From Candidatus Jordarchaeales archaeon (GTDB lineage: Archaea > Asgardarchaeota > Jordiarchaeia > Jordiarchaeales > Freyrarchaeaceae): a stretch of DNA of 32,000 nt. The DNA is taken from contig JAWAHN010000003.1 of assembly GCA_038889235.1 (NCBI GenBank), forward strand, positions 143,703-175,702. Reading direction: 5' to 3'. The translations under genes and the position numbers were made by a program. Of the stretch, positions 4,633 through 28,749 are shown piece after piece. The number at the start of each line of letters is the position of its first letter. Position 1 is the first letter of the stretch. Under the pieces are notes generated by a model, which saw nothing but the letters and a program-made list of their open reading frames with translations, was not told the origin of the DNA and did no database searches.

Positions 4633-4660
4633 CCCTCCTCACCCACCAATTTTTTGGTTT

Positions 4661-4680
4661 TTTAAGTATAAAATAATTTG
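4661..4680 (-). promoter_or_regulatory. Probable TATA box of the mttB-corrinoid operon, within the divergent mttB/RACo control region
   Basis: The minus strand reads caaattaTTTTATACttaaa, about 30-40 nt upstream of the SD and TTG. Confidence 0.4.
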
Positions 4681-4829
4681 TTTCACGAAGTTACAACATA
4701 GTGATTCATGTTGGTAGCTTTGGCCGAGAAATAACGCAACTTTATGCATAAACGTCCGTTTTACTCGAACCTACTCTTAAAAAAGGATAAGGTTGAAATC
4801 ACTATGTATAGTGGACGCCGGTGAAGTGG

Positions 4830-8683: not shown

Positions 8684-8747
8684 TTCACACCATCCTCCAA
8701 CACGCTCGTCCAGCTAGAGATTGAAACTCTCTATTAAGTCTTTCCCT

Positions 8748-9794: not shown

Positions 9795-9938
9795 GCTAAC
9801 CCCTCCAACTGGAAAACACTCCTATTCACTGAAATTAAAAGCTTTGCTCGCAAAACACATGTCGAAAGCCCAAGTAGCCTTCACAAAGCTAAACCCCACC
9901 AAGCGAAGATGCCAAGTGGGCGCCAAAACAGCAACCGT

Positions 9939-10173
9939 TTAGGCAGACTCAACAGAGTGCAACACCACCCGCAAGATTCCCCGGCTAGCCAGAAGACAAG
10001 ACACCCTCTCCAAGAACCCGTGAACACACGCCAGAGCCCACCCAGGCCACGACCCACCAAACGAGAGTATAGGACAACTCTCTGAAGGAAAGAACAGCAA
10101 AGCCAGCTTACCCAAGGCCAAAAATCACCGGCTCCTCCAAAACTTCAAAACCCTCAATCGGTGACGCACTCAC
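9939..10173 (-). pseudogene. Possible frameshifted small gene upstream of the LLM gene
   Basis: GTG at 10173 after GAGAGGGTGA opens a 21-codon frame. Removing one T from the T5 run at 10120-10124 joins it to the 9939-10121 ORF. Strong G/T strand skew. Product not recognised. Confidence 0.25.
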
Positions 10174-10232
10174 CCTCTCTTAAATAACCCACCAGCCAAA
10201 CTAAATATCAATATTATTTTAATTTAGTAATG

Positions 10233-10240
10233 TTTATAAT
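10233..10240 (+). promoter_or_regulatory. TATA box of a probably leaderless acyl-CoA dehydrogenase transcript
   Basis: TTTATAAT lies 24 nt upstream of ATG 10264, which lacks an SD. Confidence 0.45.
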
Positions 10241-10263
10241 GTAGCTTAGGTCGGACTTCTCTG

Positions 10264-11520: not shown

Positions 11521-11629
11521 GCCAAGCGTTGTAAAGGTTAGCTTTGACGCGCAAATCAAATAGTTTTTAGGGAAGTGAGACAATACAATTAGTCTGTGTT
11601 CTCTCGTACTGGGTGAGAGGTGTTTCGTT

Positions 11630-12853: not shown

Positions 12854-12870
12854 ACCCCCCTTTTTCCCTC
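12854..12870 (+). terminator. Pyrimidine/oligo-T tract after the saccharopine dehydrogenase-like gene
   Basis: A C-run then a T-run follow the stop codon directly, as in archaeal intrinsic terminators. Confidence 0.35.
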
Positions 12871-13088
12871 TGACTCCACTAACCTGCATGTTGAAAACCC
12901 ATAGTATGCGACTTTTACTCGTCCAACTAAAACTTGAAAAGAGAAAGATGTTCTATTAGACGATTAATAGAAGAGCTATGCAGATGAGAAGCAAGGTTGG
13001 CTGGAGAGATGCTCTCCCCTCATTAGGGAACGTGAAATTTAACTCATCTTCGTTGCAGGCTTCATTGTAGAAAAAAGGGTGTTCCGCC

Positions 13089-13934
13089 TTGGAGGCTGCT
13101 TTACTTGTTTTTGGTGACAAGTACGATAGGTTGAGGAGGTTCATCCTTGATAAGGGGAGAAATGGTGTTGTCGTCGCCTTTTCCGGCGGTGTTGATAGTT
13201 CCACACTGGCCGCTGTATGTCGCAGACTGCTGGGGGACAAGGCTGCCGCGGTAACCGTGGTTTCGCCACTCCACCCTCCCGAGGAGGTCGAAGAGGCGTG
13301 CAGGGTCGCGCGTGAGATAGGTGTGAGACACCTTCTTGTTGAGGGTGACCAGCTTTCAGATGAGAACTTTGTCCGGAACATGGAGGACAGGTGTTACCAC
13401 TGCAAGAAGGGTATGTTGAAGACGCTGAGGAAGGTTGCAGACGAACTCGGGTTTGAGGCGATTTTCGAGGGGACGAGCTTCTCGGATTTGGGGGGTCATA
13501 GGCCTGGGTGGAAGGCTGTCATTGAAGTGGACCGTGTTTACAGCCCGTGGGTTGAAGCGAGGTTCACGAAGGACGAAATTAGGGCGTTTGCCAGGGCGCT
13601 GGGTCTCTCGGTGCACGACAAGCCCTCAACAGCGTGCCTAGCAACGCGCATACCCTTTAATGAAAGGATAACAGTCGAGAAGCTTGTAAGGGTAGGTAGG
13701 GCTGAAAGCGTCGTGAAGCGCATAGCAGGGGTAAGGCAGGTTAGGGTGAGAGATCACTGCGGATTGGCGAGGATAGAGGTTAGCAGGAGTGAGCTCGAAA
13801 GGATGCTCAGCTTAGAAGTGTTGGACTCCGTTGCTAGGGAACTTAAAAAACTCGGTTTCAACTATGTCACCTTAGACTTGGAGGGGTATAGGGAGGGGAG
13901 CATGCTTCTAACGGCCAGAGGCTCTGGTAGCTAG
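13089..13934 (+). CDS. larE: LarE-family ATP-dependent sulfur transferase (PP-loop)
   Basis: AFSGGVDS PP-loop, RCYHCK, HRPG, PSTACLATRIP, VRVRDH..LARIEV and GFNYVTLDLEGYREGS. Confidence 0.9.
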   Translation: MEAALLVFGDKYDRLRRFILDKGRNGVVVAFSGGVDSSTLAAVCRRLLGDKAAAVTVVSPLHPPEEVEEACRVAREIGVRHLLVEGDQLSDENFVRNMEDRCYHCKKGMLKTLRKVADELGFEAIFEGTSFSDLGGHRPGWKAVIEVDRVYSPWVEARFTKDEIRAFARALGLSVHDKPSTACLATRIPFNERITVEKLVRVGRAESVVKRIAGVRQVRVRDHCGLARIEVSRSELERMLSLEVLDSVARELKKLGFNYVTLDLEGYREGSMLLTARGSGS

Positions 13935-14021
13935 CCTGAAAGCTGGTGGTAAGCTTTGGGAGCAACGTTGAGAAAAGTGTTCTCGAAGCACAGAGTATTT
14001 GTCCACTCTTCTTAGGGGTTT

Positions 14022-14396
14022 TCAGCACTTGAAGAAGAGCCAGCCGTCTTTCACTTTTTCAAACCTTATCAGGCAGTATCGTCCCCTCAGTTTTTCCCCC
14101 TTCATGTAGACGACTATCTCCTTGTCGGTCCACTTCTCCTCCTCGTAAACCCCCCGGTCCCATATTTCCACTTTCCCCGCTCCATACTCCCCTTCGGGGA
14201 TTATCCCTTCGAAGGACGCGTAGTCTAATGGGTGGTCTGCTACGGCTACAGCGAGCCTTTTCACGCCCCTTGTAGTCGGCGGCTCTTTGGGTACCGCCCA
14301 GCTTTTAAGAACACCGTCTTTCTCCAGTCTTAAATCCCAGTGCAGGTGGCTGGCGTAATGCTTCTGGATAACATAAATTCTTTCAGAACTCTTCAC
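14022..14396 (-). CDS. Stand-alone LigD-type DNA 3'-phosphoesterase (PE domain)
   Basis: [32 protein letters not shown]...[27 protein letters not shown] 14396 is preferred because it sits about 26 nt below a TTTTTATT box; the ORF-track ATG is at 14441. Confidence 0.92.
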
Positions 14397-14565
14397 GAGA
14401 TAATTGAAGCCTAGTGCTCCCAATAAAAATTTAACTTTCATGGGTCGGCGCCGGTTCCTTCCCTTGGAAAACTCTAAACATTTAAGCCCACAAGCAGCGT
14501 TTGAGAATGAGAAAAGTAAATAAGCCAGGTGGAATGAGAGTTGGCTCGCAAGGGAGGGGAATAGT

Positions 14566-15741
14566 ATGTGGAATGTTGTTATCGCTGGTTACTTGAGGAC
14601 GCCCATCTCCCGTTCTCGGCCAAGAGAGCCTGAAAAAGATGTGTTTAACAGTTTGAGGGCGGACGAGCTAGCTGCGATAGTTGTCAGAGAACTCGTGGAG
14701 CGGTCTGGGATAGACAAGAAGGACATTGACCACTGCATAATGGGGTGTGCCAACCAGTCTGGGGAACAGTTCAACTATGGTGGAAGGCTGATAAGCCTCC
14801 AGGCTGGGCTGGAGTTTGAGACACCGGCTCTCGGCGTTGAACGACAATGCGGCTCAGCAATGACTGCGATCGGGATAGGGGCAATGGAGATAGAGACAGG
14901 GGTCTCCGAAGTAGTCATAGCAGGCGGCTACGAGCACATGACTCACGTTCCCATGGGTGCAAACGTGAACCCCAACCCGGAGTACATAAAGAGGGAGAAG
15001 AGGTTCGACTGGATGATAGCGTTCAACATGGGCTTAACGGCGGAAAAGCTCGCTGAAGAGTCAGGCATAACAAAACAGGAAATGGACGAGTGGTCCCTGA
15101 GAAGCCACCAGCTCGCCGCTAAAGCGTACAGGGAGGGCTACTTCAAAGGCGAAATCCTCCCGATAGAGGTCACATTGCCAGACGGCAAGAAAACGGTGAT
15201 AGACCGGGATCAGAGTATTAGGGAGGACACGACGCTCGAAAAGATTGCCAGTCTACCTCCGGCGTTCAAGCCGGGTGGCGTAATAACTGCTGGCAACTCG
15301 TCCCCCCTAAACGCCGGCGCTGGTGCAGTCCTCTTGATGAGCGAAAGGAAGGCTAAAGAGTACGGCATTGAGCCTATGGCATACGTGAGGTACGCTGCCT
15401 GGGCCGGAGTAGACCCAAGCGTTATGGGCAAGGGCCCCGTCCCGGCCTCAAGGAAAATATTGAAGAAGGCTAACCTCAAGGTGAGCGACATAGACTTCTG
15501 GGAGATAAACGAGGCGTTCGCCGTCGTGACACTTTACTGCATAAAAGAGCTCGGCATAAACCCGGACATCGTAAACGTTAAGGGCGGAGCGATAGCCATC
15601 GGCCACCCGCTGGGCATGACTGGAGCAAGACTGACGGGAACGCTAGCGAGAATACTAAACCTCATGGATGGCAGGTATGGCATCGCGACAATGTGCTGTG
15701 GCGGAGGACAGGGAACGGCAGTCCTAATAGAAAGACCGTGA
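14566..15741 (+). CDS. Acetyl-CoA C-acyltransferase (classical thiolase)
   Basis: ERQCGS (nucleophilic Cys), [27 protein letters not shown] and [18 protein letters not shown]. Confidence 0.95.
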
Positions 15742-16299
15742 ACACCCCTCCCCCTATTTTGATTTTTAGAGGAAAGAAAGAGGCAGGGATGTGAACCTGG
15801 CTACCGCTAGTTGCAACGTGAAACTCTTAGAAGCTTAGGGGAGGCTTGCCAACCCCTCGTTAAAGCATCCCGTCTGCGGCCAGGGATGGTGAGGGGGGAG
15901 ATTTTTTAGACGAAAAGAGGCTACGTTAATGTTCCACGTTGCTGTGCTCCGTCCCGGGACACTAAATAGCCGACTGCGCTGTTAATAGTTCAGCGTTATA
16001 ACGGCGAGCCACGGTTAATGATCGTTACCTAATACGAACCCCCCTTTTCAGCCTTCTAAGGGAAACCGGCTGGAGTGCGTAGAATGCAATGTAGAGCCCC
16101 CTCTTGGGGTCAACGAACCCGGTTGGGATTCAAGCGTCATGTGGAGTTGGGGCTTAACACCTGCAATCGAAGCCCTCAGAGTTTGAGCGCTTTGGTTTCA
16201 ACTGTGTTGCGACAGGTGCGTTTACGCCTAGGGTGCCGTTGATCTTGTGCCGCAAAAGAGTTACATTTTTGCCAGTGTTATTGGCATTTAGCGGCTTAC

Positions 16300-16344
16300 T
16301 TGGCTAAAGTTAGGATCGACAGGTTTGGGAGGATATTGATACCA
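16300..16344 (+). pseudogene. Remnant of an AbrB/MazE/SpoVT-type DNA-binding (antitoxin-like) gene
   Basis: MAKVRIDRFGRILIP matches the AbrB N-terminal signature (V.VD..GRI.IP). Similarity stops abruptly after IP. Confidence 0.45.
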
Positions 16345-16409
16345 AGAACATGCTCTCCTCGGGGGAAGTTTAAAAAAAGAAAGGTCAAAAAAGGGAGGTG
16401 GATTCTCTC

Positions 16410-17219
16410 TTATTCTCCCTTGAACTGTGGTGCCCGCTTTTCTAGGAAGGCCATAACTCCTTCCATGGCGTCTTTGCTCGCGCTCGCTATGGATGCTAGG
16501 GCGCCCTCAAGGATTAATCCGCTACTTATTGGAGCTTCTGCTCCGAAGTTGAGCGCGTACTTCGTTACACGCTGGGCTATAGGCGGTCCCTGTGCGAGCT
16601 TCATAGCGAAGGCTCTAACCTCTTCCTCAAACTTCTCCCGCGGCACCACTTTGTTGACGAGACCTATCCTGTAGGCTTCCTGGGCGCTTATCGGCTCAGC
16701 TATCAGGCAGAGCTCCTTAGCCTTTGCTAGGCCGACGAGACGTACCAGTCTCTGTGTTCCACCCCACCCTGGGATGATGCCTCTTTGAAGCTCGGGCTGA
16801 CCTATTTGGGCATCCTCAACAGCTATCCTGAAGTCACATGCCAGTGCGAGCTCGCACCCTCCTCCCAGGGCGAACCCGTTTATGGCCGCTATAACTATCT
16901 TGGGGAACCTTTCAATCTTCTGCGTCACTTTCGCCATGTACATTGCCGTCTCAAGCATGCCTACAACTTGCGCAGTTCCTTTCGTCTGCATAAGCGTCAG
17001 CGGCAATGGCTCCTTTAAGTCTGCCCCAGCCGAGAAGAACCTGTCACCGGACCCGGTTATTATCACGACGCGCGTGTCCTTGTCAAACCAGAGCTCGTCG
17101 AGCGCCTTGTCAAGCTCGTCTATGAGCTTCTGGTTTATCGCGTTAGCCTTAGGCCTGTTAAGTATTATCCATGCTAGTGGCGGCTCTTTCTTTAAAATTA
17201 TGGTCTCGTATGTGGACAA
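16410..17219 (-). CDS. Enoyl-CoA hydratase (crotonase family)
   Basis: FFSAGADL, NGFALGGGCELALACDFR and QPELQRGIIPGWGGTQRL, with both catalytic Glu positions present. TTG start with GGAGGGTG SD. Confidence 0.94.
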   Translation of the reverse strand: MSTYETIILKKEPPLAWIILNRPKANAINQKLIDELDKALDELWFDKDTRVVIITGSGDRFFSAGADLKEPLPLTLMQTKGTAQVVGMLETAMYMAKVTQKIERFPKIVIAAINGFALGGGCELALACDFRIAVEDAQIGQPELQRGIIPGWGGTQRLVRLVGLAKAKELCLIAEPISAQEAYRIGLVNKVVPREKFEEEVRAFAMKLAQGPPIAQRVTKYALNFGAEAPISSGLILEGALASIASASKDAMEGVMAFLEKRAPQFKGE

Positions 17220-17430
17220 GACACACCCTCCTTCGGCTTACAAGTTAGGTGGAACTGCAACTGACTTATAAGTTTTGCCGAACACACGCGTCTATCGAAG
17301 CTCTGAAACACCTTAAGCAGCGCTTTACATGCCCCTCTTAGAAAGAAATAAGTGTGTTCGCAGAAAGGTAATCTTGAGTGCTGTCCTTCTTCTAGCTGTG
17401 GTTGGTTCTGAATTTTCGGAGGGAGGCGAG

Positions 17431-18237
17431 TTGGAGGCTGAAAGCGAGTTAATTAGGGAGGCGGCAAGGGTTCTCTCGAGGTCCAGGTATGCGGTGGCAC
17501 TTACAGGTGCCGGGGTTTCAACTGAGTCGGGGATCCCGGATTTCAGGGGGCCATCCGGGGTATGGACGAAGAATCCTGAAGCAGAGAGGAAAGCCTACGA
17601 GGTTTATGAGAAGTTTCTTAGGGATCCGAAGGCATACTGGGAGGATGTGTTGAGGGGGCCTTCACTCTTAGGTGATATTTGGAAGGCGCAGCCGAACCCT
17701 TCGCACTACGCGCTGGCGGAGTTGGAGCAGATGGGGATTCTCAAGTGCGTTATCACGCAAAACATTGACAACTTACACCAGAAGGCTGGTAGTAGAAACG
17801 TCTTAGACTTCCACGGGAACATCTTCAAGCTCAGGTGCGTGAGCTGTGGTACGAGGTACGAACGGGTCAACTTCAACGTGGCTGAGGTCTTGTCGAGAGG
17901 CGACGTCCCTAGGTGTAGTAGGTGCAATTACCCGTTAAAATCGGACGTCGTCTACTTTGGCGAGCCGATTCCGGGCGACGTTTACGAGAAAAGCTTGGAG
18001 GAAGTTAGAAGGTGTGATGTTATGATTGTCGCTGGGACCTCGGCTGTTGTGTACCCAGCGGCATACCTTCCAAGGTTAGCGAAGTTCAAGCCGAACCCAG
18101 CGGTGATCATTGAAGTTAACGCCCAGCCTACGCCGCTGACGGAAGAAGTGACAGACTACTTCATTCAGGGCTTAACCGGAAAAATACTCCCAAAAATAGT
18201 TGAAGAAGTTAAGCGATTGAGGGAAGGGCACGCGTGA
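17431..18237 (+). CDS. cobB: NAD-dependent protein deacylase (sirtuin, Sir2/CobB family)
   Basis: LTGAGVSTESGIPDFRG, TQNIDNLH, FHGN, CVSC/CSRC zinc site, GTSAVVYPAA and VN. TTG 17431 after GGAGGGAGG is preferred to ATG 17329. Confidence 0.93.
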   Translation: MEAESELIREAARVLSRSRYAVALTGAGVSTESGIPDFRGPSGVWTKNPEAERKAYEVYEKFLRDPKAYWEDVLRGPSLLGDIWKAQPNPSHYALAELEQMGILKCVITQNIDNLHQKAGSRNVLDFHGNIFKLRCVSCGTRYERVNFNVAEVLSRGDVPRCSRCNYPLKSDVVYFGEPIPGDVYEKSLEEVRRCDVMIVAGTSAVVYPAAYLPRLAKFKPNPAVIIEVNAQPTPLTEEVTDYFIQGLTGKILPKIVEEVKRLREGHA

Positions 18238-18361
18238 AGCTGGGGGATTAATGAGCTGAAGTACACGTGCTTGAAGGATTTTGGTTCCAAAGGACGCTGA
18301 CATGCTAGGCGTGTTCCCGGTGATCCCTGCGGCTTCTGCGGGGGGTGCAGCGGTGTCACCT

Positions 18362-18757
18362 TCACACTACTTCCTTTAAGCTCAGCGCACTCACGTAGCT
18401 CCCAACTTTCATTTTGAGTTTCTCGTCCTCCGTCACCAGTGTGAAGTTGTTGCTTTTTGCCGCGAAAACGTAGGAGGCGTCATAGAACGTGATGCCCAGC
18501 TTAACTGCAATGTCAATCACCTCCTGCTCATGGCAGCTCACATCAACTTTCTTGAGCAACTTGAACACTCTTTTAACTAAAGCTGTCAGTCGGATAGCCT
18601 CCTCGTAACCGACATCCCTTAGCAAGGACACCCTTTTCCACAGAACGTTCCCCACTTCGTATACAGCTAAGTCCAGAGTATAGTTTCCATACAGGACCCC
18701 CACTTTCCTCTCCACCAGAGCTTTAAATATCGATGAGGCATCGAAAAGGAGGCTCAT
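18362..18757 (-). CDS. vapC: VapC PIN-domain toxin
   Basis: LLFDASSI, YEVGNVLWK, ITFYDASYV and LVTEDEKL carry the acidic PIN tetrad. ATGA overlap with the upstream gene. Confidence 0.9.
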   Translation of the reverse strand: MSLLFDASSIFKALVERKVGVLYGNYTLDLAVYEVGNVLWKRVSLLRDVGYEEAIRLTALVKRVFKLLKKVDVSCHEQEVIDIAVKLGITFYDASYVFAAKSNNFTLVTEDEKLKMKVGSYVSALSLKEVV

Positions 18758-18984
18758 CTAAAACCCCTATCCTCCCTCACACTCTTCACCACGAAATCAT
18801 CTGAAAACTTTTCTAGGACGGTGCCAAGCTCATCTAGTTCGCTTTCAATCTCCTCTAACTCCCTCCTCCTCAACTCTTCCTCTATAGCTTTCCTAAGCAA
18901 GTCTGATGGCTTGATGCCGAGCTCTTCGAGTCGCCTCTTCACCTCCAATGGCACCTTCACAGACACCGTTACATATTTACCCAT
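18754..18984 (-). CDS. vapB: VapB-type antitoxin (ribbon-helix-helix-like)
   Basis: TVSVKVPLEVKRRLEELGIKPSDLLRKAIEEEL N-terminus, acidic C-terminus, coupled to the PIN gene. ATG 18984 preferred. Confidence 0.85.
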   Translation of the reverse strand: MGKYVTVSVKVPLEVKRRLEELGIKPSDLLRKAIEEELRRRELEEIESELDELGTVLEKFSDDFVVKSVREDRGFR

Positions 18985-19208
18985 TATAACCACCAATAGT
19001 TACTACATTAATGTAGACATTTAAGGTTTACCTCGCAGCACGGATGGTTCAGAGGTCTGTCCGGAAAGGCGGCGGTAAAGGGTTCCCGGTAGGAGGGACG
19101 AAAAGCTCGTGAAGGGAATGCGGAATTTTGCGGGCTCGTTCACGAAGTCTTAATAAACAGACGTAAACCTAATAGAGTGGTTGTAGTGTTTAGCGGGAGG
19201 AGTTATAC

Positions 19209-20345
19209 GTGCGTTTTGTGTTGCTTGGTGCAGGTGGTATGGGGGAACTTGCCCTAAAAGACCTTGTTGAAAGTGGTGTCGAAAAAATCGTTGTTGCCGA
19301 CTACGATGTAGGGAAGGCGGAGGCCTTAGCGAGGAAATATGGCGGGAGGGTGCACGTTTCAGCCGAATTCGTTGACGCCAATGACCGCAACTCCATGTTG
19401 AGAGTTATGGATGGCGCCGACGTCGTAGCGAGCACTATTGGCCCGTTCAGTGATTATGGTGTTAAAGTTCTTGAGGCGGCGATAGAAGCTGGAGTGAACT
19501 TCGTCGACATATGCGATGATCCACAACCGACTGTCGATGAGCTTAACTTGCACGGCGAAGCTAAGCGGGCGGGTATAACCGCGGTCATAGGTATGGGCAA
19601 CAACCCAGGAGTGGGAAACTTGTGTGCCAGGTACGGCGCGCAGAAGCTGGATGAAGTTGAAGAAATCAAGCTAATCTGGGTTCACCCGGCAATTTCACGA
19701 ACAGGGGAAGCAGCCTTGCTACACGCAATTAGCGCCTTTTCCGGAATGGTCCCCTCTTACCGCGATGGTCAATGGGTTTACGTTGCTGCTGGATCAGAGA
19801 AGGAGGAGGTTGAGTTCCCTGACCCCGTGGGGAAGGTCGAAGTGTACCACTCCGGGCACCCTGAACCCTTAACCATACCAAGGTATATCCATGTCAGAAA
19901 CGTGTCCTGTAAGGGCGGTATTGTCCCAACATGGACTGGGCAGGAATTCATAAAACTCCTCTCCTACGGACTGGGAGATGTAGAGCCCGTCGAGGTTAGG
20001 GGGGTGAAAGTAGTTCCCAGAGAGTTCACGGCATCCCTCCTCAAAAAGGTTGTCCGCAACTTGGGTGGCAGTCTAACTATTGGAGGAAGCGTCAAGGCTT
20101 CGCGCGTGATAGTTAAAGGCAGGAAGGGTGGGGACAAGGTTACTTATACTTACGATAGGATAGGCAATGAGTGGGAGGCGGGAGTCGCACTATCCATAGG
20201 AGCCCAAATGGTTGCTAGAGGCGAAGTCAAGGAGAAAGGCGTTTTTCCACCTGAAGGCTGCATTGAACCTCAAAAGTTCTTTGAAGAACTGAGGAAGAGA
20301 GGGTTAAGGATCGTGGAAAGGATCATCATAGAACACGAGCTTTGA
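19209..20345 (+). CDS. Saccharopine dehydrogenase-like NAD(P)-dependent oxidoreductase (paralog 2)
   Basis: LGAGGMG, STIGPF, FVDICDD, GMGNNPG, GHPEPLTIP and GVFPPEG. GTG start with GGGAGGAG SD. Confidence 0.85.
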   Translation: MRFVLLGAGGMGELALKDLVESGVEKIVVADYDVGKAEALARKYGGRVHVSAEFVDANDRNSMLRVMDGADVVASTIGPFSDYGVKVLEAAIEAGVNFVDICDDPQPTVDELNLHGEAKRAGITAVIGMGNNPGVGNLCARYGAQKLDEVEEIKLIWVHPAISRTGEAALLHAISAFSGMVPSYRDGQWVYVAAGSEKEEVEFPDPVGKVEVYHSGHPEPLTIPRYIHVRNVSCKGGIVPTWTGQEFIKLLSYGLGDVEPVEVRGVKVVPREFTASLLKKVVRNLGGSLTIGGSVKASRVIVKGRKGGDKVTYTYDRIGNEWEAGVALSIGAQMVARGEVKEKGVFPPEGCIEPQKFFEELRKRGLRIVERIIIEHEL

Positions 20346-20639
20346 ACGATTTAAGGCCAAAGAGCCTGTCACCCAGTATATGGCAACCCGTAGAAAGGGT
20401 GCGGCGGCTAAAATACTTCACAGTAAACCTCCAGCGCACAGTAGCCAACCGTCTACTGAGCCCTCTCTGCTTTAGCCCCGACCACGGGGAAGAAAGGCCC
20501 TAAAAAGGTCGTCTCAAAACAGGGGAAAACAAGCGTCCGTGACGGGGGTTTCAGCTAACAAGTAAAAACAGGGTATGAATTTAAGGCTTGCTCCACGTTT
20601 TTCAGTCAAATTCACCGGACAACCGTGCTCTCGAGCCTC

Positions 20640-22487
20640 CTAGTGGAGGGACAGCGGGTTAAGGTTTGGGCCGTGGTCCTGTATGTAGCGTCTCAGTCTC
20701 GAAAGCTGCTCTTTAAGCGTGGTGAAGACCTCAGCTGGGGTTTCAGGAATCTCACTGTATATTTTGAGCATTCTTTCGAATTTCTCAGCGTACTTTTCCA
20801 GCCTTATCGTGAACTGCTTCTTGTATGTCTCTACATCGTACTCTTTGTTTAGCGTTTCCTTAAACAGCTTTTTAAGGTCGCTGTACGTAGGTATGTAGCC
20901 TATCGGCGTGGTCAGTGCTTCTGCCTCTCCTTCCACCCTGCACGCCATCCACTTCAGCCACACTCTCTTGTCCTCCCTGTCAGTCAAGTACCTCCCATTC
21001 TCGCTGAGGAAGTAATTCACCCCGTATATCTTAGGTGGCCTCTTCAGCTTCCGCCCAAACTCTATGTGGTTCCTAATGTATACACCCAGGTTTATGGACA
21101 TGAAGTCTAGGTTAGCGAAGGGGTTAAACTCCAGCTCACCAGGCTTACCTAGGACCGCTGTAGTCCTCTCAGTCTCCATAGAAGCGCCTATGGTGACCAC
21201 GCCGTGAAGCCAGTCGAATGCCTCAACAAGCGGGATCACGTACGTAGAATCCCTAACACCGTAAATTATGGCGCTCACAATGACGCCTTCAGGGTCATCG
21301 TACTTGGGATCTAAGTTGGGGAACGACGAAAGTGGGACAGTGAAGCGAGCATTCGGGTGCGATGCCGGCACAGGGTTACCTTTCTCGTCCTTCATTCCGG
21401 GGAACCATTCGCCGAGGTAATTTCTCCCCTTGTTGGGCAGGTTCTTCTTTGAACCGTTCCAGTAAACTTCTTTGTCCTCCCCTAGAAGGACGTTTGAGAA
21501 TATGACTTCTCCGGGTTTGTTGAGTACATCCCATATCACCGGGTCGTCTTTTGCGTTTATACCGTCAATTATGCCAAATATGCCGATTTCGGGGTTGACC
21601 GCCCTAGCCTCCCCGTCAATCGCCCTGATGAACGCTATGTCGTCGCCAATGATCTTTCCAACCATGCACGTGGAAGTCTTACCCGAAGCAGATGGAAAGG
21701 CGCCGGTGAAGTACAGTAAACCTTTCCGTCCTTCGACCCCTATCACGAACATGTGTTCTGCTAGCCAGCCCTCCCTCAATGCCCTACAAATCGTCAGCCT
21801 TAAAGACAGCTTCTTGAGACCAATGCTATTGCCACCGTACTGCGTGTTGACACTGTAAACGGTTTCAGACGCGAGGTCAATGTATATCCTCCGCTTGCTA
21901 ACGTTCTTACTTCTACAACACTCGTCAAGCTCACCTTGAGAGTGGATAAACTTAAGGAAACTTGCACTCTCGCCCAGCCTAACGAACTCGTCGTAAGCGC
22001 TCCTGTAGAGTATGTTCTCACTGTGGAGGACATAGTATGAATCTGTGACCTGCACCGCCAGAACCTGGAAGGGTGACTTTTTGGGGCCTAAGGAGTAGAA
22101 CCCCACGAGCATCTCCCTGCCCTTCATCGAACCCCTTAGAAGACCGACTATCTCTTCTAAGCCCTCGCGGCGCGGCTTCGTGTTGATAAATGGAATCTTC
22201 TCGTCAGTTAGGATGAAAGTGTCCCCACGAGCCCTAGCCTGATCAAGTGGGCTGTCGAAGTGCACGGTGTGGCCTAGGATCCTCGCGGGCAGCTCCTCAC
22301 CGTTCTCAAGCGCCTTCCTCCTAACGTATTCGTAGTCCTCGCGGCTTCCCGTAGAGATGAAAACGCTTGACGGGTCACAGAGAGATATAACTTCACTTAG
22401 GAAGGCGTGGAGCTCCCTGTTGTTTATCCGTTTAACTCTCTCGAACATCTCCTTGCTCAATCTTTCTTCAAGGTACTCTAAGCCCAT
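20640..22487 (-). CDS. pckG: Phosphoenolpyruvate carboxykinase (GTP)
   Basis: [48 protein letters not shown] and NPFAN. SD GAGGAG. Confidence 0.95.
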
Positions 22488-22546
22488 GTTAGCACAGACT
22501 CCTCAAACGGTTTTCAAGCCACACTTAGGCATATGTAAAGATGCAA

Positions 22547-22561
22547 TTTGTCATAAACAAA
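22547..22561. promoter_or_regulatory. Candidate transcription-factor dyad TTTGT-N5-ACAAA (copy 1)
   Basis: TTTGTCATAAACAAA lies 60-74 nt upstream of pckG. An identical 15-mer occurs at 29642-29656. Confidence 0.35.
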
Positions 22562-22909
22562 GATGCATAAGACTTGGGTCCTATATTTTAAGATTCCTCT
22601 ATAAATTTTACTCCTCAAAATCTTCCTTTCGAAGCGTGAACATTAAGCACTCTTAAGTTTCAACGCTAAGCCGAGATTTGCTTGCAATAAACCTGTTAAT
22701 CTAAGCTTCGAAATGCCCCTCACCTTTAAACAAAATCGAGCACACGTTTCGGTGGTTCACAGCGTGCACAAAAAGGTACCAATAATTCCTGAACAACTTC
22801 TTAAAGCCACTAATCTTCTCCTTCGAGCTGTGAAGAGAAAAAATTTAATATTCTTGCCTTTCTAATAAGGGAATTGTTAAATAAAGGCTTCCCGGAGGGA
22901 GAGAGGGTC

Positions 22910-23416
22910 TTGGCATTAAGAGAGTGGAGCTACCACCAGCCTATCAAGGGGAAAGCGAACATTGACGCATACCTTTCCACGCATTATGCAATGATAGACT
23001 ACTTAATAGAGAAGGACGGAAACATTACTGCAGCTATTAAGGACGGGTGGGAATTGGGAAGAAAAGCAGGGACGCGGTTTTTCGTCAGGTTTTCCGATAA
23101 AATTAAGAAGTACGGCAGGAATCTAGAAGGAGTCGCAAAGGTTCTAAACGAAATCTATGAGTCGATTACCGGAAAAAAGTTTGACGAAATAGAAGTTGGG
23201 GAGAAAACCATAGTATTCGAAGATTACAAGTGCCCACTCTGCGAGGACTATGTTTTCCCCGACGAGTTCAAGAAAGAGGGAAGAGCCTGCATAGCAATTT
23301 CAGGCGTTTTCACAGAAGTGTGCAACCTAGCCGGGCTTAAGGTAAAATGCTGGGAGACCAAGTGCAAGGCTGCGGGAGACGACTGCTGCAGACACGAGCT
23401 TGAGATAACCAAGTAA
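22910..23416 (+). CDS. V4R (4-vinyl reductase)/Bet3-like domain protein 1
   Basis: G.ELGRKAG helix, CPLC, C...SG.F..V and WETKCKAAGDDCCRHEL. TTG 22910 follows GGAGGGAG (the ORF track starts at 22874). Confidence 0.82.
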   Translation: MALREWSYHQPIKGKANIDAYLSTHYAMIDYLIEKDGNITAAIKDGWELGRKAGTRFFVRFSDKIKKYGRNLEGVAKVLNEIYESITGKKFDEIEVGEKTIVFEDYKCPLCEDYVFPDEFKKEGRACIAISGVFTEVCNLAGLKVKCWETKCKAAGDDCCRHELEITK

Positions 23417-23466
23417 AATCCACTTAAAATTTTGAAAAACTTTTTGAGGGTTGGAGGTGTGTTCGC

Positions 23467-23979
23467 TTGGGGTTGAAGGGGTGGATTGCATGGCACGCTG
23501 TGGCTAAAAAAATCGATTTAGAAGCCCTAATCTCGATGACACTTGCAACATATATGACCCTCCTAGAGAAAGAGGGGGATGCCGAAAAAGCTACACGTAT
23601 GCTCTGGAATATCGGAAGGAAGGCTGGAGCCAGAATGCTTGCGAAATATGCTGAGCACGTAGGTAAGCATGCCGTTGAGTTTTACGAGTTCTCCAAAACC
23701 TATAACTTCGCGTACTACTTCTACCTAGGAAAAACGTACGACAAAATATACATAATCCCCGAGGAGAAGAAAATAGTATTCGAAGATTACAATTGCCCCC
23801 TCTGCAAAGGAATACTCGCTCCAAAGGAAATAAGGGATAAAGTCAGGCTATGTGTAATAGTAGACGGCATTTACACCGAAGTGTGCAAGCTTAGAGGCTT
23901 TAATGCTGAAAGCTGGGAGACCAAGTGCAAGGCTGCAGGGGACGAGTGTTGTAGGCATGAGCTGAAACTCATAGAGTGA
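23467..23979 (+). CDS. V4R/Bet3-like domain protein 2 (tandem paralog)
   Basis: IGRKAG, CPLC, C.IVDGIY.EV and WETKCKAAGDECCRHEL. TTG start with GGAGGTG SD. Confidence 0.82.
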   Translation: MGLKGWIAWHAVAKKIDLEALISMTLATYMTLLEKEGDAEKATRMLWNIGRKAGARMLAKYAEHVGKHAVEFYEFSKTYNFAYYFYLGKTYDKIYIIPEEKKIVFEDYNCPLCKGILAPKEIRDKVRLCVIVDGIYTEVCKLRGFNAESWETKCKAAGDECCRHELKLIE

Positions 23980-24020
23980 GGAGAAACATTTTCTCCTCTC
24001 TTCTATTTTAATGACTTTTT
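23978..24020 (+). terminator. Hairpin plus T-rich terminator after the V4R pair
   Basis: Perfect 9-bp stem GAGGAGAAA-cat-TTTCTCCTC at 23978-23998, followed by tcttctattttaatgactttttt. Confidence 0.6.
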
Positions 24021-24422
24021 TCCCTTATTTCTGCTTGCAGTGTCTCCTTCAAGATGGAGGCTTCATAACGTTTCAGAAAGTGTTTTGTCTAGACACGTAG
24101 TAAAGCATGAGAAGTAAAGGTGACTGGGCCCACGTTGCCCGGTGGTGGTCGCGGCGTCGAGCTTAAAAATTGCAGCGTGGTTGCTGGGAGTGCTAGAAGC
24201 CAGGCCACTAAGGGGGCTGACGAAAAAGGGATGCAGGAAGTTGAACAAAGCTTAACGCTAAGAAAATGATAACAGTAAGAGAGTTAACGGGAAAGGTGGC
24301 GTTTTCGAATGATGTTTCTCTTTCACCTATACTCTGTTCTCCTTTTGCCCGGTCTGTGGGAGAAAAGTTAAATGTCAGCTTGTGATTATGACGCTTGGTT
24401 TTCGCCTTGGAGGGTGGGGAGG

Positions 24423-25616
24423 ATGAAGGTTGAGGACGTAAAGAATGTTGCTGTCATCGGAGCGGGCATTATGGGCCACGGAATAGCGCAGCTAGCTGCC
24501 CAATCTGGCTATGAGGTCACGCTTATGGATTTAAAGCAGGAAATACTTGACAGAGCGCTTGAAAAAATAAGGTGGAGCTTGGGTAAGCTCGTCGATAAAG
24601 GCGTTATTCCGAGGGAAAAAGCGGGTGAAATTGCCGGCAGAATAAGGACGACGACAAGTTTAGAGGAAGCGGTTAAGGAAGCAGACTTTGTTGTGGAAGC
24701 TGTAGTGGAAGACGTAAATGTAAAAAAAGACGTTTTTAGAAGAGTGGATGAGCATGCTCCCAAACACGCTGTTCTTGCGTCTAACACAAGCACGCTCCCC
24801 ATAACCGAGATAGCTTCTGCGACTTCTAGGCCCAGCAGGGTTGTCGGAATGCACTTCTTCGCCCCTCCAGTCGTAATGTCTCTAGTTGAAGTTGTGAAAG
24901 GCGGTAAAACGAGTAAGGAGACCTTGCAGCTAGCAGTTGAACTAGCTAGAAGACTGGGAAAAACCGTGATAGTGTGTAGGAAGGACGTCGCCGGCTTTAT
25001 AGTGAACAGGGTCCTAGGGCCCATTCTTCACGAAGCCGCCTGGACTGTTTACAGAGGGGGGGCGACAGTCGAAGAGGTTGACTCAGCCATGGTTCACAAG
25101 GTGGGGCTACCAATAGGCGCCTTTAGGCTGGCAGACTACATTGGAATAGATACCGTGTACATGGCCGGGAAGGCTGTAAGTGAGAGAGACCCCGCCGCGT
25201 TAATGCCATGCCCCATTTTCGAGGAGTACTATAGGAGAGGGTGGCTTGGGCAGAAGACGGGGAGAGGCTTCTATGAGTGGAAGGAGGGGGGCGCGCCCAT
25301 CGTAGCTAGGGAGGTAGGAGAGCGGCTTGACCCGGTGCCCATAATGGCTCCAGCGGTCAACGCTGCCGCATGGCTTGTGAGGAACAAAATAGCAACCGTG
25401 AAAGACGTGGATCTGGGTGTCAGACTTGGGCTTGGGTACCCAAAGGGAATACTCGAGTTAGCCGACACATGGGGGCTTGACAAAGTGGTGTCAACGCTGG
25501 AAGAGAAAAGGAGAATATACGGCGACTACTATACCCCAGACCCTCTCCTGGTGAGAAAGATTAACGAGGGAAAAACAGGTGTCAAAGCTGGAGAGGGATT
25601 CTACAAGTACAAATGA
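24423..25616 (+). CDS. 3-hydroxyacyl-CoA dehydrogenase (paralog 2, two C-terminal domains)
   Basis: GAGIMGHGIAQ, EAVVE, ASNTSTL, GMHFFAPP, GFIVNR, GQKTGRGFY and GVKAGEGFY. ATG 24423 after GGGGAGG gives MKVED, the same start as paralog 1. Confidence 0.94.
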   Translation: MKVEDVKNVAVIGAGIMGHGIAQLAAQSGYEVTLMDLKQEILDRALEKIRWSLGKLVDKGVIPREKAGEIAGRIRTTTSLEEAVKEADFVVEAVVEDVNVKKDVFRRVDEHAPKHAVLASNTSTLPITEIASATSRPSRVVGMHFFAPPVVMSLVEVVKGGKTSKETLQLAVELARRLGKTVIVCRKDVAGFIVNRVLGPILHEAAWTVYRGGATVEEVDSAMVHKVGLPIGAFRLADYIGIDTVYMAGKAVSERDPAALMPCPIFEEYYRRGWLGQKTGRGFYEWKEGGAPIVAREVGERLDPVPIMAPAVNAAAWLVRNKIATVKDVDLGVRLGLGYPKGILELADTWGLDKVVSTLEEKRRIYGDYYTPDPLLVRKINEGKTGVKAGEGFYKYK

Positions 25617-26136
25617 GTACGCTTAACAGTTTTGAGGATAGGAAAAAATCGCAGCGAAACCGGTCCCTTTCAACTATTGGTGGCTGACAAACTTTCGGGA
25701 AAACGAAAATGGGACCACGCTTTTCCGGAATCTTCTCATTCCTTGAAAGTGCTTGTTCATCTCCCGCGCGGAGGAATAAGTGTCGACTGGTGGAGCCAAC
25801 ACCGAAAATCCCGAGGAGTTCCTGCGAGGCAGCTCCAGTTGGAAAGCAAGCATTAACAGAAGACGCAGGTCTGCCTCGCTGCAAAGAAAAAACCCTTTCA
25901 AGCTTCAAGCCCCATCGACGGAGCCCACTAGCGATGCGCTCGTTTACAAACGCGGGGACGTGAATAGCGCTTCCTACGCTTCAGAAAGACACGCGAAGAG
26001 CCTTCCAAGAACGGCGATGCTAAAAGTGACACTAACCCACATTTAACACGTTCAATGAGCTTGCGAAATCCCTTTGGAGGAAGCGATGGAAACTCAACCA
26101 CAAGAAAGAAATTCAAGTTGAACACTATATCTCTGA

Positions 26137-27582
26137 ATGGGAGAGGAGAAGTTGGTTGGTGTCATCTCTTATGGCGCCTATATACCCCTGCATGCTTTAA
26201 GCAGGGAGCTCATTGCTAAAGCATGGGACTTCCCCTTTGTTCCCGGAACTAAAAGCGTCGCCAACGCAGATGAGGACAGCGTGACCATGGCTGTTGAGGC
26301 CTCAATGGACTGCCTTACGGGGCTTGAGCCGCAAAGCGTCGACGGCGTCTTTTTCGCGACAACAACACCCCCTTATGCCGAGAAGATGAGCGCGCCCACA
26401 ATAGCTTGGGCTCTCGACATGAGGAGAGACGTGATGACCATAGACTTCACAGGCTCGCTTAGAGCTGGCACAACAGCGCTGATCGCAGCATACAACACCA
26501 TCAAAAGTGGGGCAGCAAAGAGGATTCTTGTCGCTGCAGCCGACTGCAGGATACCTGAACCGGAAAGCATGTACGAGTTCCAGTTTGGAGACGGAGCAGC
26601 GGCAGTTCTACTCGGAAACGAGGACGGAGCAGCCAGAATAGTGGACTACTACACGGTGAGCGACGAGTTCGTCGGCCCCTGGAGGAAGAGCGGAGACGTT
26701 TGGGTTAGAGAGTTCGAGGCTAGGCACGACGTGATCTATGGTTACGGAAAGAACGCAATCGACGCCATCGCCGGGCTCATGGCTAAGACGGGCGTTAATG
26801 CGAGTGACATATCGAAGCTCGTCCTCTACGCTCCTGAGCCTAGAAGCCACATGACCGTCGCCCAGATGCTCGGCTTCAAGTTCGAGCAACTGCAAGACAC
26901 GTTCTTCTTCTCGCTGGGCGTGACAGGGGCACCTCACCCCCTCATAATGTTAGCCTCAGCGCTAGAAGCCGCGAAGCCCGGCGACAGGATCATTGTGGCA
27001 GGTGCAGGCGATGGAGGGGACGCGATACTCCTAGAGGTCGAAGAGGGGATAAAAGAGGTTAACAAGGTCCCGAGGAGAGGGGTGAAGGGAAACCTTGAGA
27101 CGATGAAGACCCTCAAGAACTATAACGACTACATAAGGTTCAGGAACCTGTTGGGCAAGCAGAGGTTCACGCGGAAGACCTCCACGGTAACCTACTGGAG
27201 GGACAGGAAGGAGATACTCCCCCTCAAGGGGGTTAGATGCAGGAACTGTGGAACCGTCCAGTACCCGATCGTTAGGGTGTGCTACGAGTGCGGGTCAAAG
27301 GACAACTTTGACGAGGTTAGGCTGGCTAAAAGGGGGGTTGTCTACACTTTCACGCTAGACCACCTGGTTGGAGGCGAGTACTACACCACTCCCGTCCCGC
27401 GCGTCGTAGTCGAACTTGAAGGCGGAGGGCGGGTTTTCGTCGAAATGACTGATTGTGAACCCGGCGAGGTGAAGATCGGCATGCCCGTCGAGTTAACGTT
27501 CAGAATAATACATGAGAGCGAAGGCTTCTACCACTACTACTGGAAGGCTAGACCTGTTAGGGAGAAAAGAAGGGAGGGGTGA
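26137..27582 (+). CDS. Non-catalytic HMG-CoA synthase-like domain fused to DUF35 (Zn-ribbon plus OB-fold)
   Basis: YGAYIP, ANADEDSVTMAVEA and GDGAAAVLL give the HMGS fold, but the catalytic Cys position reads SLRAGT. The C-terminus has CRNC...CYEC followed by GVVYTFT/VVELEGG/GMPVELTFR. Confidence 0.88.
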   Translation: MGEEKLVGVISYGAYIPLHALSRELIAKAWDFPFVPGTKSVANADEDSVTMAVEASMDCLTGLEPQSVDGVFFATTTPPYAEKMSAPTIAWALDMRRDVMTIDFTGSLRAGTTALIAAYNTIKSGAAKRILVAAADCRIPEPESMYEFQFGDGAAAVLLGNEDGAARIVDYYTVSDEFVGPWRKSGDVWVREFEARHDVIYGYGKNAIDAIAGLMAKTGVNASDISKLVLYAPEPRSHMTVAQMLGFKFEQLQDTFFFSLGVTGAPHPLIMLASALEAAKPGDRIIVAGAGDGGDAILLEVEEGIKEVNKVPRRGVKGNLETMKTLKNYNDYIRFRNLLGKQRFTRKTSTVTYWRDRKEILPLKGVRCRNCGTVQYPIVRVCYECGSKDNFDEVRLAKRGVVYTFTLDHLVGGEYYTTPVPRVVVELEGGGRVFVEMTDCEPGEVKIGMPVELTFRIIHESEGFYHYYWKARPVREKRREG

Positions 27583-27585
27583 TAG

Positions 27586-28749
27586 TTGAGAGGTAGAATT
27601 AAGGATAAGGTGGCCATAATAGGGGTTGGATGCACGAAGTTCGGCGAGCTCTGGGAGAAGGACATGGAGGACCTCCTCGTCGAGGCCTCATACGAGGCAT
27701 TCGAGGACGCTGGAATAGAGCCGCGCGACGTCGACGCCATATGGTGCGGCATATTCTACTACTTCACGGGGCTTGCAGGCGTCTCAGCAGCTGAGCCACT
27801 CAAGCTGTACGGCAAGCCGGTGACTAGGGTTGAGAACTTCTGCGCCTCTGGGATGGACGCCTTCAGGAACGCCTGCTTCGCCGTAGCGTCAGGGGCATAC
27901 GACATAGTCATGGCTTGCGGTGTCGAGAAGCTAATGGACCAGGGGTCGAGGGGGCTACCCGGGCTAACGGAGTTCGGTCACCCGTTCTACGGCCAGATAT
28001 CCGCCCCCGGAATGTTCGCTCTGGCTGCAACCCGCTGCTTCCACGAGTACGGCTGGACTAAGGAGGATCTGGCGCTAGTAGCCGTGAAGAACCATTACAA
28101 CGGGGCAGCACATCCTAAAGCCCACTTCAGGCGCCAAGTGACCGTCGACGAGGTTCTTAAAGCCCCTATGATTGCTTGGCCCCTCGGGAGATACGACTGT
28201 TGCGCTATGTCCGACGGCGCCGCTGCAGTGATAATAACTAGGCCGGAGATAGCCAAACAGTACAGAGATGACTATGTCTTGGTAAAGGGGAACGGTTTAG
28301 CGGTCGAAACCGTGTACCCGTTCTTTAAGCCGTCATTCGACTTTCTAGGTTTCCCCGCCACCAGGAAGGCGGCTGAGGAAGCATACAAGGAGGCCGGTAT
28401 AGAGAACCCGCGCAAGGAAATAGACTTCGCCGAGGTGCACGACTGCTTCACGATAACCGAGCTGCTCAACTACCAGGACCTAGGCTTCTGCGAGAGGGGG
28501 CAGGGGGCGAGCCTGATACGTGAAGGCATCACGTCGATAGAAGGCGAGCTACCCGTCAACCCGTCAGGTGGGCTCAAGTGCTTCGGGCACCCAATAGGGG
28601 CTACAGGGTGCAGGATGATATATGAAGTGACAAAGCAGCTCCAGGGGAGAGCTGATGGGAGACAAGTGGAGGACCCGGAGATCGGGCTTGCGCACAACCT
28701 TGGAGGACCGGCAAGCGTTGCTTCAGTGACTATACTGGGGCGAAGATAG
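27586..28749 (+). CDS. Thiolase-family protein, archaeal/SCP2-thiolase/PhlC type (HDCF motif)
   Basis: ENFCASG (Cys86), DGAAAVI, EVHDCFTITE, NPSGGL..GHPIGATG and HNLGG. TTG start 3 nt after the upstream stop, with GGAGGGGTGA SD. Confidence 0.93.
   Translation: MRGRIKDKVAIIGVGCTKFGELWEKDMEDLLVEASYEAFEDAGIEPRDVDAIWCGIFYYFTGLAGVSAAEPLKLYGKPVTRVENFCASGMDAFRNACFAVASGAYDIVMACGVEKLMDQGSRGLPGLTEFGHPFYGQISAPGMFALAATRCFHEYGWTKEDLALVAVKNHYNGAAHPKAHFRRQVTVDEVLKAPMIAWPLGRYDCCAMSDGAAAVIITRPEIAKQYRDDYVLVKGNGLAVETVYPFFKPSFDFLGFPATRKAAEEAYKEAGIENPRKEIDFAEVHDCFTITELLNYQDLGFCERGQGASLIREGITSIEGELPVNPSGGLKCFGHPIGATGCRMIYEVTKQLQGRADGRQVEDPEIGLAHNLGGPASVASVTILGRR

Follow-up and report, generated by a model that had tools for sequence, protein, structure and literature searches.

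Within the 32,000-nucleotide stretch of the Candidatus Jordarchaeales genome analysed here (‘the window’), two adjacent forward-strand genes encode what is probably a degradative thiolase for acetoacetyl-CoA or short 3-oxoacyl-CoAs, together with a pseudo-enzyme partner that would serve as its scaffold and probably contribute half of the CoA pocket. The domain layout, the state of the key residues, synteny, purifying selection and the presence of a canonical paralogous trio elsewhere in the genome were all computed, and the activity of a Pseudomonas homologue and the shared CoA chamber are taken from the literature; complex formation in this archaeon, the substrate, the physiological direction and the role of the dead domain at the CoA pocket are what we infer.

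The first gene, ORF A (26137..27582, + strand, 481 aa), encodes a pseudo-HMG-CoA-synthase fused to DUF35, in which a complete HMG-CoA-synthase (HMGCS) fold is joined head-to-tail to a complete DUF35 unit consisting of a Zn ribbon and an OB fold (Pfam ACP_syn_III/ACP_syn_III_C, zf-ChsH2 at residues 363-389 and OB_ChsH2_C at 393-456). Its true start is probably the TTG at 26152, as homologues start with MVGI, which would shift the numbering used here by -5. ORF B (27586..28749, + strand, 387 aa; Pfam Thiolase_N/Thiolase_C_1) starts with a TTG 3 nt past the stop codon of ORF A and has a GGAGG motif 8 nt upstream of its start. On the same strand, and 520 nt upstream of ORF A, lies a gene for a 3-hydroxyacyl-CoA dehydrogenase (24372..25616; PF02737 and PF00725); no RNA or tRNA genes were found in the window, including the 520-nt gap.

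The preliminary description of this locus had proposed that the catalytic positions of the HMGS-like domain (residues 5-337, nt 26149..27147) are lost, and this is borne out. A script places the relevant motifs at residues 75 (TTTPPY), 106 (GSLRAGT) and 230 (LYAPE), and the Glu/Cys/His/Asn tetrad is replaced by T76/L108/Y231/V262, with L108 at nt 26458. Alignments made with HMMER against the solved HMGCS of M. thermolithotrophicus (6ESQ), with MAFFT against the genome’s own canonical HMGCS, and by fold matching of an AF2 model all agree on the changes of E to T76, C to L108 and H to Y231, and none of them reveals an intact triad. The model itself (pLDDT 81.7, pTM 0.85) matches 6ESQ chain I at a TM-score of 0.86, with HMGCS residues 2-345 mapping to ORF A residues 5-337 in the PDB alignment, and has the 6ESQ HMGCS, PhlA and MucA as its nearest folds. 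Both NCBIfam HMGCS equivalog models score beneath their cut-offs (NF003274, 201 vs 244 bits; TIGR00748, 145 vs 353 bits). In all 76 orthologues examined, Thr occupies the Glu site and L, I, T or V the Cys site, and none has His at the His site. The dead domain is under strong purifying selection, with a dN/dS of 0.06-0.08 against two Jordarchaeia relatives; the thiolase gives 0.02-0.03 in the same comparison.

Pfam and PDB alignments also agree on the fusion to a Zn ribbon and OB fold from nt 27238, as first described. The rubredoxin-like ribbon (PF12172, residues 363-389, nt 27223..27303) presents C368/C371/C382/C385 in the motifs CRNC (residue 368, nt 27238) and CYEC (residue 382), and these four cysteines are invariant in 76/76 orthologues. 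It leads into the OB-fold domain (PF01796, E 2e-14; residues 393-456, nt 27313..27504), a region that aligns to 6ESQ chain E, the DUF35 part of ChsH2, BbsA and PhlB; overall, residues 3-130 of the 6ESQ DUF35 protein align to ORF A residues 351-476. The junction between the two units (residues 338-360, nt 27148..27216) corresponds to DUF35's N-terminal arm, and is of low confidence in the monomer model (pLDDT <50), yet it is strictly conserved: there are zero non-synonymous differences from either of the related loci L010 and L011, and S349, V351, R355 and D356 are nearly invariant across the family.

Judged by its sequence, ORF B is a thiolase of the SCP2/archaeal type, with an HDCF loop in place of the C-terminal CxG; it clears the cut-off of NF004810 (560.6 vs 403 bits) and matches PF22691 (E 9e-45). 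The motifs initially reported could all be located, namely CASG at residue 86 (C86, nt 27841), HDCF at 285 (H285-D-C287-F, nt 28438-28449) and GHP at 334 (G334-H-P, nt 28585-28593), and the Cys, HDCF and GH elements are in register with those of the 6ESQ thiolase. A lack of the CxG motif had also been remarked upon; the motif is indeed absent, with NLGG in its place, but this is no oddity, being normal for SCP2-type thiolases. Among partner thiolases of the family the catalytic triad is intact in 66/69, as is HDxF. An additional GHP at residue 131 of ORF B is irrelevant.

The closest characterised counterpart is a complex from Pseudomonas fluorescens (PfACAT/HMGS-DUF35), made up of an HMGS-DUF35 fusion chain plus a thiolase, that has been expressed and assayed (Nat Commun 2026;17:2196, PMC12960953). 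It made neither HMG-CoA nor a condensation product, cleaved acetoacetyl-CoA thiolytically, and lost nearly all thiolysis when the motif His was mutated (H294Y). That system and ours share a single HMGS-like and DUF35 polypeptide devoid of the E-C-H-N tetrad, an adjacent thiolase with Cys, HDxF and GHx, and surroundings free of PKS/NRPS genes; they differ in that ours resides in a member of the Jordarchaeia (Asgard), alongside a canonical mevalonate trio. On these shared defining features, and through one Pseudomonadota MAG (L050) that the family takes in, we consider the pair to be an archaeal, and largely ordinary, member of the widespread fused dead-HMGS-DUF35/ACAT type. The best solved-structure match is the archaeal thiolase/HMGCS/DUF35 complex, 6ESQ, which consists of these same modules (111 bits for the HMGS-like part and 72 bits for DUF35, with 230 bits for its thiolase against ORF B), but there HMGCS is active and DUF35 a separate chain; with a dead HMGS, channelling to HMG-CoA would be impossible.

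Taken together, these observations suggest a model in which the two ORFs share a transcript and are coupled in translation, and their products assemble much like the archaeal thiolase/HMGCS/DUF35 machine, with a thiolase dimer clamped via DUF35 to a dimer of the HMGS fold. The thiolase would be the sole catalytic part, C86 serving as nucleophile, base and second cysteine both coming from the H285-D-C287-F loop, and the GHP motif taking part in the oxyanion hole through H335. The dead HMGS-DUF35 chain would keep the assembly together, so that the scaffolded thiolase envisaged in the preliminary description remains the most plausible role for the partner, and it would probably also give the half of the CoA chamber that HMGCS supplies in the canonical complex. 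The predicted reaction is ordinary thiolysis of acetoacetyl-CoA, or of a short 3-oxoacyl-CoA, to acetyl-CoA: it would be the final step of beta-oxidation or of a 3-hydroxybutyryl-CoA route, in whose remaining genes the window is rich. Genes of beta-oxidation type are found there for 3-hydroxyacyl-CoA dehydrogenases (HCDH, at 24372 and 7454), ECH (16410), ACAD (10264) and, as reported at the outset, a classical thiolase (14566-15741; NF005033, 597 bits vs a cut-off of 511). Across the whole genome there are two thiolases of the classical kind and, besides ORF B, three that are paired with DUF35; thiolases of SCP2 type number five.

Running the pair in the biosynthetic direction, as a condensation of acetyl-CoA (plus acyl-CoA) pulled by a coupled reductase in butyrate-type fermentation, reverse beta-oxidation or ACP-independent archaeal fatty-acid synthesis, appears unlikely to us, though there is precedent for it. 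Ketothiolase (KT)/DUF35 pairs belong to a proposed fatty-acid synthase complex of S. acidocaldarius, DUF35-paired thiolases can work biosynthetically in Sulfolobus, and Asgard archaea are particularly rich in such pairs, with several per genome (bioRxiv 10.1101/2024.07.05.601840). Like ORF B, those ketothiolases are of the archaeal SCP2 type, and they depend on their DUF35 partner; that DUF35 protein stands alone, however, with no HMGS-like domain, and the reductase is NADPH-dependent and (R)-specific (same source). A dehydrogenase does sit just upstream of ORF A, but it is of the NAD-type 3HCDH family of beta-oxidation rather than the (R)-specific SDR of the archaeal synthase. Moreover, the assayed fused complex made no acetoacetyl-CoA from acetyl-CoA (PMC12960953), and a dead HMGS, unlike that of the canonical complex, would be unable to pull the endergonic condensation. 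We regard as more doubtful still an unusual substrate (a branched, aromatic or dicarboxylic 3-oxoacyl-CoA, as for BbsAB) or a retro-aldol reaction of the Ltp2/Sal type, both of which the preliminary description had entertained. BbsAB (7PXP), ChsH2-Ltp2 (6OK1) and Shy-Sal do share a DUF35 Zn-ribbon/OB module flanking a thiolase-fold dimer, and five SCP2-type thiolases in one genome imply some division of labour. An HMGS-like partner, present in our pair, is missing from those systems; scores against the equivalog models for BbsA and BbsB lie far beneath the cut-offs (42.9 vs 250 and 202.5 vs 750 bits), and in the Ltp2 and Sal aldolases the motif opens with Tyr (YDHF/YDCY; PMC12329534), where ORF B has H285. 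The assayed homologue accepts plain acetoacetyl-CoA, the context is one of beta-oxidation, and the thiolases of Asgard archaea and Dehalococcoidia are 65-74% identical with no specialised neighbourhood in common, a level of identity between archaea and bacteria that points to a universal substrate.

The two remaining alternatives are weaker. It is very improbable that the pair is a Friedel-Crafts C-acyltransferase of PhlABC/MucABC type compressed into two genes, as had first been proposed. The modules are indeed the same three, since PhlABC (5M3K/5MG5) and MucABC (9VBO/9VBT) combine a catalytic subunit of thiolase fold with a DUF35 clamp and an HMGS-like subunit that is dead, and both PhlA and MucA rank with the nearest solved structures in fold and in sequence; in both respects, however, archaeal HMGCS is matched as well as PhlA or slightly better. 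Each of the known acyltransferases takes up three genes, which lie next to genes for PKS or NRPS; we found none of the latter (type III PKS or NRPS-PKS domains) among the scanned window ORFs of at least 100 aa, and PhlC and MucB have lost both HDxF, intact in ORF B, and the ability to thiolyse acetoacetyl-CoA (PMC12960953). The Phl and Muc complexes do still keep the interfacial CoA chamber (PMC12960953), a feature that our preferred reading of a scaffolded degradative thiolase would share. The idea that the two genes make HMG-CoA for mevalonate, as a true but diverged HMG-CoA synthase and its thiolase, is almost certainly wrong, even though the top NCBIfam match of ORF A is an archaeal HMGCS model and JGI labels many homologues as HMG-CoA synthase. 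All four tetrad residues are replaced, the corresponding quadruple mutant of an archaeal HMGCS is inactive (PMC12960953), and the equivalog scores given above fall short. The preliminary description had already discounted a role in mevalonate synthesis and looked to an intact HMGCS elsewhere in the genome; one is present at C1:561058-562089 (553 bits vs a cut-off of 244, E/C/H/N intact), together with its own thiolase and DUF35 in a trio at C1:559.4-562.1 kb, and this mevalonate thiolase shares only 38% identity with ORF B.

Relatives of the pair occur in at least 588 species genomes, with an orthologue in 70/301 Asgard genomes. Eighty related loci, spanning Asgard archaea, Bathyarchaeota, Chloroflexota, Deltaproteobacteria and Binatia, were compared, and the order of fusion followed by thiolase holds in 79 of them. 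Archaeal copies of the fused pair form a single clade. An attempt to root the family tree used the genome’s own HMGCS, a lone outgroup on a long branch, and the basal fork lacks support, for which reasons we make no claim as to the direction of transfer between archaea and bacteria.

Mining of bacterial genomes, to which the published survey was limited, had returned approximately 1,000 ‘minimal’ HMGS-ACAT-DUF35 loci, and the fused complex was interpreted there as an ‘evolutionary intermediate’ that the MEP pathway had freed (PMC12960953). The conservation seen here argues instead for a stable, selected module, and coexistence with a canonical complex is a poor fit to the idea of the MEP pathway ‘freeing’ the complex to decay. 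We would tentatively go further, and speculate that this pseudo-enzyme complex is ancient and under stable selection, kept by Asgard archaea beside their mevalonate trio rather than being a transient bacterial intermediate, in which the dead domain is retained since the SCP2-type thiolase would be unable to bind CoA productively if the HMGS half of the shared pocket were missing, and which may stem from duplication of an archaeal trio and have spread later to bacteria. What we add to the published type, a single archaeal clade and coexistence with the canonical trio, is modest in both parts, although it extends to archaea a kind of complex assayed only in Pseudomonas. It also corrects a likely mis-annotation, homologues being named ‘HMG-CoA synthase’ or ‘OB-fold protein’, such that a non-existent second entry point to mevalonate could find its way into reconstructions of Asgard metabolism. 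The pair offers a clean system in which to ask why a thiolase retains a dead partner under strong selection; otherwise, it is one further thiolase of beta-oxidation type.

Beyond the genus, the neighbourhood of the pair is not conserved, and only the fusion and thiolase genes are universal to all 80 loci. The Jordarchaeales locus L010 has an 83%-identical 3-hydroxyacyl-CoA dehydrogenase at the equivalent relative position. Acetoacetate decarboxylase was considered as a general neighbour and rejected: its gene lies 3' of the thiolase in one Freyarchaeota locus (L013), in no other of the 80, and is absent from this genome, so there is no general link to acetoacetate. Loki-type genomes carry genes for an unknown 350-aa protein and a GNAT upstream of the pair; in some Dehalococcoidia, genes for ACAD or ECH lie nearby, along with tandem duplicates of the pair itself.

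The fused gene ORF A (26137-27582, + strand, 481 aa) and the thiolase gene ORF B (27586-28749, same strand, 387 aa, TTG start) are separated by only 3 nt from stop to start, with a GGAGG motif 8 nt upstream of the second start, such that the two are almost certainly co-transcribed and translationally coupled. Pfam places two FabH/HMGS-type halves in ORF A (PF08545 and PF08541), then a ChsH2-type Zn ribbon (residues 363-389) and a ChsH2 OB fold (residues 393-456). Residues 5-337 align with 2-345 of the 349-residue M. thermolithotrophicus HMGCS in the solved HMGCS/thiolase/DUF35 complex (6ESQ chain I, E 4.5e-31), and residues 351-476 with 3-130 of its 130-residue DUF35 chain (E 2.6e-19); judged by these near full-length alignments, ORF A consists of an entire HMGCS followed in one chain by an entire DUF35. 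Next among the solved-structure sequence matches are PhlA and MucA, and an AF2 model (23-sequence alignment; pLDDT 81.7, pTM 0.85) has 6ESQ HMGCS (TM 0.86), PhlA (0.85) and MucA (0.81) as its best fold matches. The junction (residues 338-360), predicted with low confidence yet showing zero amino-acid changes against two Jordarchaeia relatives, matches the N-terminal arm of free DUF35, and is therefore likely to be an interface element.

The true start of ORF A is probably a TTG at 26152, rather than the annotated ATG at 26137, which would shift its residue numbers by -5; homologues start MVGI. A TATAT at 26126-26130, ~24 nt upstream of this TTG, would suit a leaderless archaeal transcript.

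Archaeal HMGS relies on the tetrad E82/C114/H238/N270, the quadruple mutant being inactive (PMC12960953). The corresponding sites in ORF A are T76, L108, Y231 and V262, with HMMER against 6ESQ and MAFFT against the genome's own HMGCS (all four residues intact) in agreement; both alignments, and a check of motif positions, thus uphold the loss of catalytic residues reported in the preliminary description, coordinates included. Both NCBIfam HMGCS equivalogs fall under cut-off (201 vs 244 bits; 145 vs 353 bits). Across 76 orthologues from 80 fetched loci, the Glu site is invariably Thr (76/76), the Cys site is L, I, T or V and never Cys, and none has His at the His site; the four Zn-ribbon cysteines are invariant. 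The recurrence of the same loss indicates, at the level of sequence, a fixed trait of the family and not recent decay. Nei-Gojobori dN/dS against two Jordarchaeia relatives is 0.06-0.08 for the dead HMGS-like domain, about 0.06 for DUF35 and 0.02-0.03 for the thiolase, figures that are rough with dS near 1, although pN lies far below pS nonetheless.

ORF B belongs to the SCP2/archaeal-type thiolases (PF22691, E 9e-45; NF004810, 560.6 bits vs a cut-off of 403), and its C86, H285-D-C287-F and G334-H-P line up with the matching motifs of the 6ESQ thiolase, 7YVY and BbsB; Cys, HDCF and GHP are kept in 66 of 69 partner thiolases. The C-terminal CxG noted earlier as missing is indeed absent, but this is the norm for the class, which has the HDCF loop instead.

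This architecture has been described in a single paper located by literature search (Nat Commun 2026;17:2196, PMC12960953), along with 1,030 co-localised HMGS/ACAT/DUF35 loci mined from bacterial genomes, 1,001 of them without secondary-metabolism neighbours. The P. fluorescens representative expressed in that study has, like the window pair, a fused HMGS-DUF35 without E-C-H-N and an ACAT with Cys, HDxF and GHx; it made neither HMG-CoA nor acetoacetyl-CoA from acetyl-CoA, yet cleaved acetoacetyl-CoA thiolytically, and H294Y in HDxF nearly abolished this (PMC12960953). By the published motif discriminators, we would place the window pair with this Pseudomonas type. The PhlABC-like acyltransferase proposed in the preliminary description does not fit, since ORF B keeps HDxF, whereas the Friedel-Crafts enzymes PhlC and MucB lack it and show no thiolysis (PMC12960953). 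The retro-aldolases Ltp2 and Sal, with Tyr at the position of the motif His (PMC12329534) where ORF B has H285, do not fit either, nor does a BbsAB type, Bbs equivalogs scoring far under their cut-offs.

We suggest that ORF A and ORF B would form a complex in which the thiolase is the only catalytic unit and the dead HMGS-DUF35 chain a structural partner, one that would probably also contribute to the CoA pocket; in all of the published complexes the HMGS-like and thiolase units keep a CoA chamber at their interface (PMC12960953). The pair most likely serves to cleave acetoacetyl-CoA or a short 3-oxoacyl-CoA by thiolysis, as judged from the assayed homologue, from the thermodynamics of a thiolase with no HMGS to pull it, and from the surrounding beta-oxidation genes. 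The main rival, that the pair runs in the biosynthetic direction, draws on DUF35-paired ketothiolases reported at work in an archaeal fatty-acid synthase. As to the genes around the pair, an NAD-type 3-hydroxyacyl-CoA dehydrogenase (24372-25616, +), a neighbour conserved in the Jordarchaeales locus L010, lies 520 nt upstream of ORF A; a second (7454-8683, -) is 48% identical to it, and with an acyl-CoA dehydrogenase (10264-11520), a classical thiolase (14566-15741) and an enoyl-CoA hydratase (16410-17219, -) they form a dense beta-oxidation set over 7454-25616, interspersed with GTP-PEPCK (20640-22487, -), two saccharopine-dehydrogenase-like genes, Sir2, a LigD phosphoesterase domain and a PIN protein.

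The initial proposal that the pair does not serve mevalonate synthesis is borne out by the source genome (2.14 Mb, 95% complete), where an intact HMGCS, sought as a check, lies on another contig (C1:561058-562089; 553 bits vs a cut-off of 244), all four tetrad residues kept, with genes in the same orientation behind it for a 384-aa thiolase, only 38% identical to ORF B, and a 140-aa DUF35. The genome also carries three further DUF35-thiolase pairs, two classical thiolases, four 3-hydroxyacyl-CoA dehydrogenases, five enoyl-CoA hydratases and four acyl-CoA dehydrogenases.

The window spans C3:143703-175702 of the source genome, and its best protein and locus matches come from Candidatus Jordarchaeales/Jordarchaeia (Asgard archaea). 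More than 4,300 cluster representatives match ORF A (protein search, E <= 1e-10), the best 120 all having the fused domain set, and at least 588 stretches encode a relative in a scan of one-genome-per-species contigs. Those listed belong to Jord-, Frey-, Prometh-, Odin-, Hod-, Hermod- and Helarchaeota, to Bathyarchaeota and one Halobacteriota MAG, and to bacteria (many Dehalococcoidia, Deltaproteobacteria/Myxococcota, Binatia, Actinobacteria, Ammonifex and one Pseudomonadota MAG). The fusion has an SCP2-type thiolase downstream in the same orientation in 79 of the best 80 of these loci, the sole exception being interrupted by a contig end, and a hydratase gene intervenes in two; between archaea and bacteria the thiolase (65-74% identity) is better conserved than the fusion (45-55%). 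Of 301 Asgard genomes with a completeness of 70% or more, 70 have an orthologue (E <= 1e-80): 4/4 in the window's own family (source genome not counted), 6/6 in its sister family and 52/69 in family f9, with 0/77 in f7 and 0/31 in f5. A quick ML tree, its root unsettled, gathers all 36 archaeal sequences into one clade (SH-aLRT 99) adjoining a Dehalococcoidia/Binatia clade. Whilst the architecture and its activity are already published, our modest additions (a module common in Asgard, archaeal copies in one clade, coexistence with the canonical trio and strong purifying selection) lead us to argue that it is more than a mere evolutionary intermediate.

Four Dehalococcoidia/Chloroflexota loci (L057, L067, L068 and L070) carry two tandem fusion-thiolase pairs on a single contig; since the copies group in separate tree clades, they are old paralogous duplicates, possibly with different substrates. 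In the Freyarchaeota locus L013 (chromosome CP147778.1), an acetoacetate-decarboxylase-family gene (L013:7795-8487) lies behind the thiolase in the same orientation; none was found in the source genome or in the other 79 of 80 loci. In 21-22 Loki-type loci (L038:3160-4760 and about 20 others of Promethearchaeota type), the genes upstream of the fusion, in its orientation, encode a 350-aa protein without a Pfam match and a 160-aa GNAT acetyltransferase. An enolase-superfamily gene and one for a beta-eliminating lyase are often close by, which might point to a role in amino-acid catabolism in that lineage.

Within the 520-nt gap upstream of ORF A, window positions 25780-26046 (+) can be aligned with L010:3359-3838 (+), where a small zinc-ribbon protein (CPRC...CDTC) is encoded; the matching frame in the window keeps the flanking residues PEEF, FKLQ and LVY, but 1-nt gaps and a 12-nt deletion have removed all four cysteines, which suggests the remains of a small zinc-ribbon gene. 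At the start of the window, a corrinoid methyltransferase set (2-6755) comprises an MtrH-like fragment (2-652), a B12-binding protein (2441-3130, -), an MttB-family methyltransferase (3127-4632, -) and a RACo-type corrinoid activase (4821-6755), with a thermosome subunit (667-2415) inside it: a methyl-transfer module in an Asgard genome.
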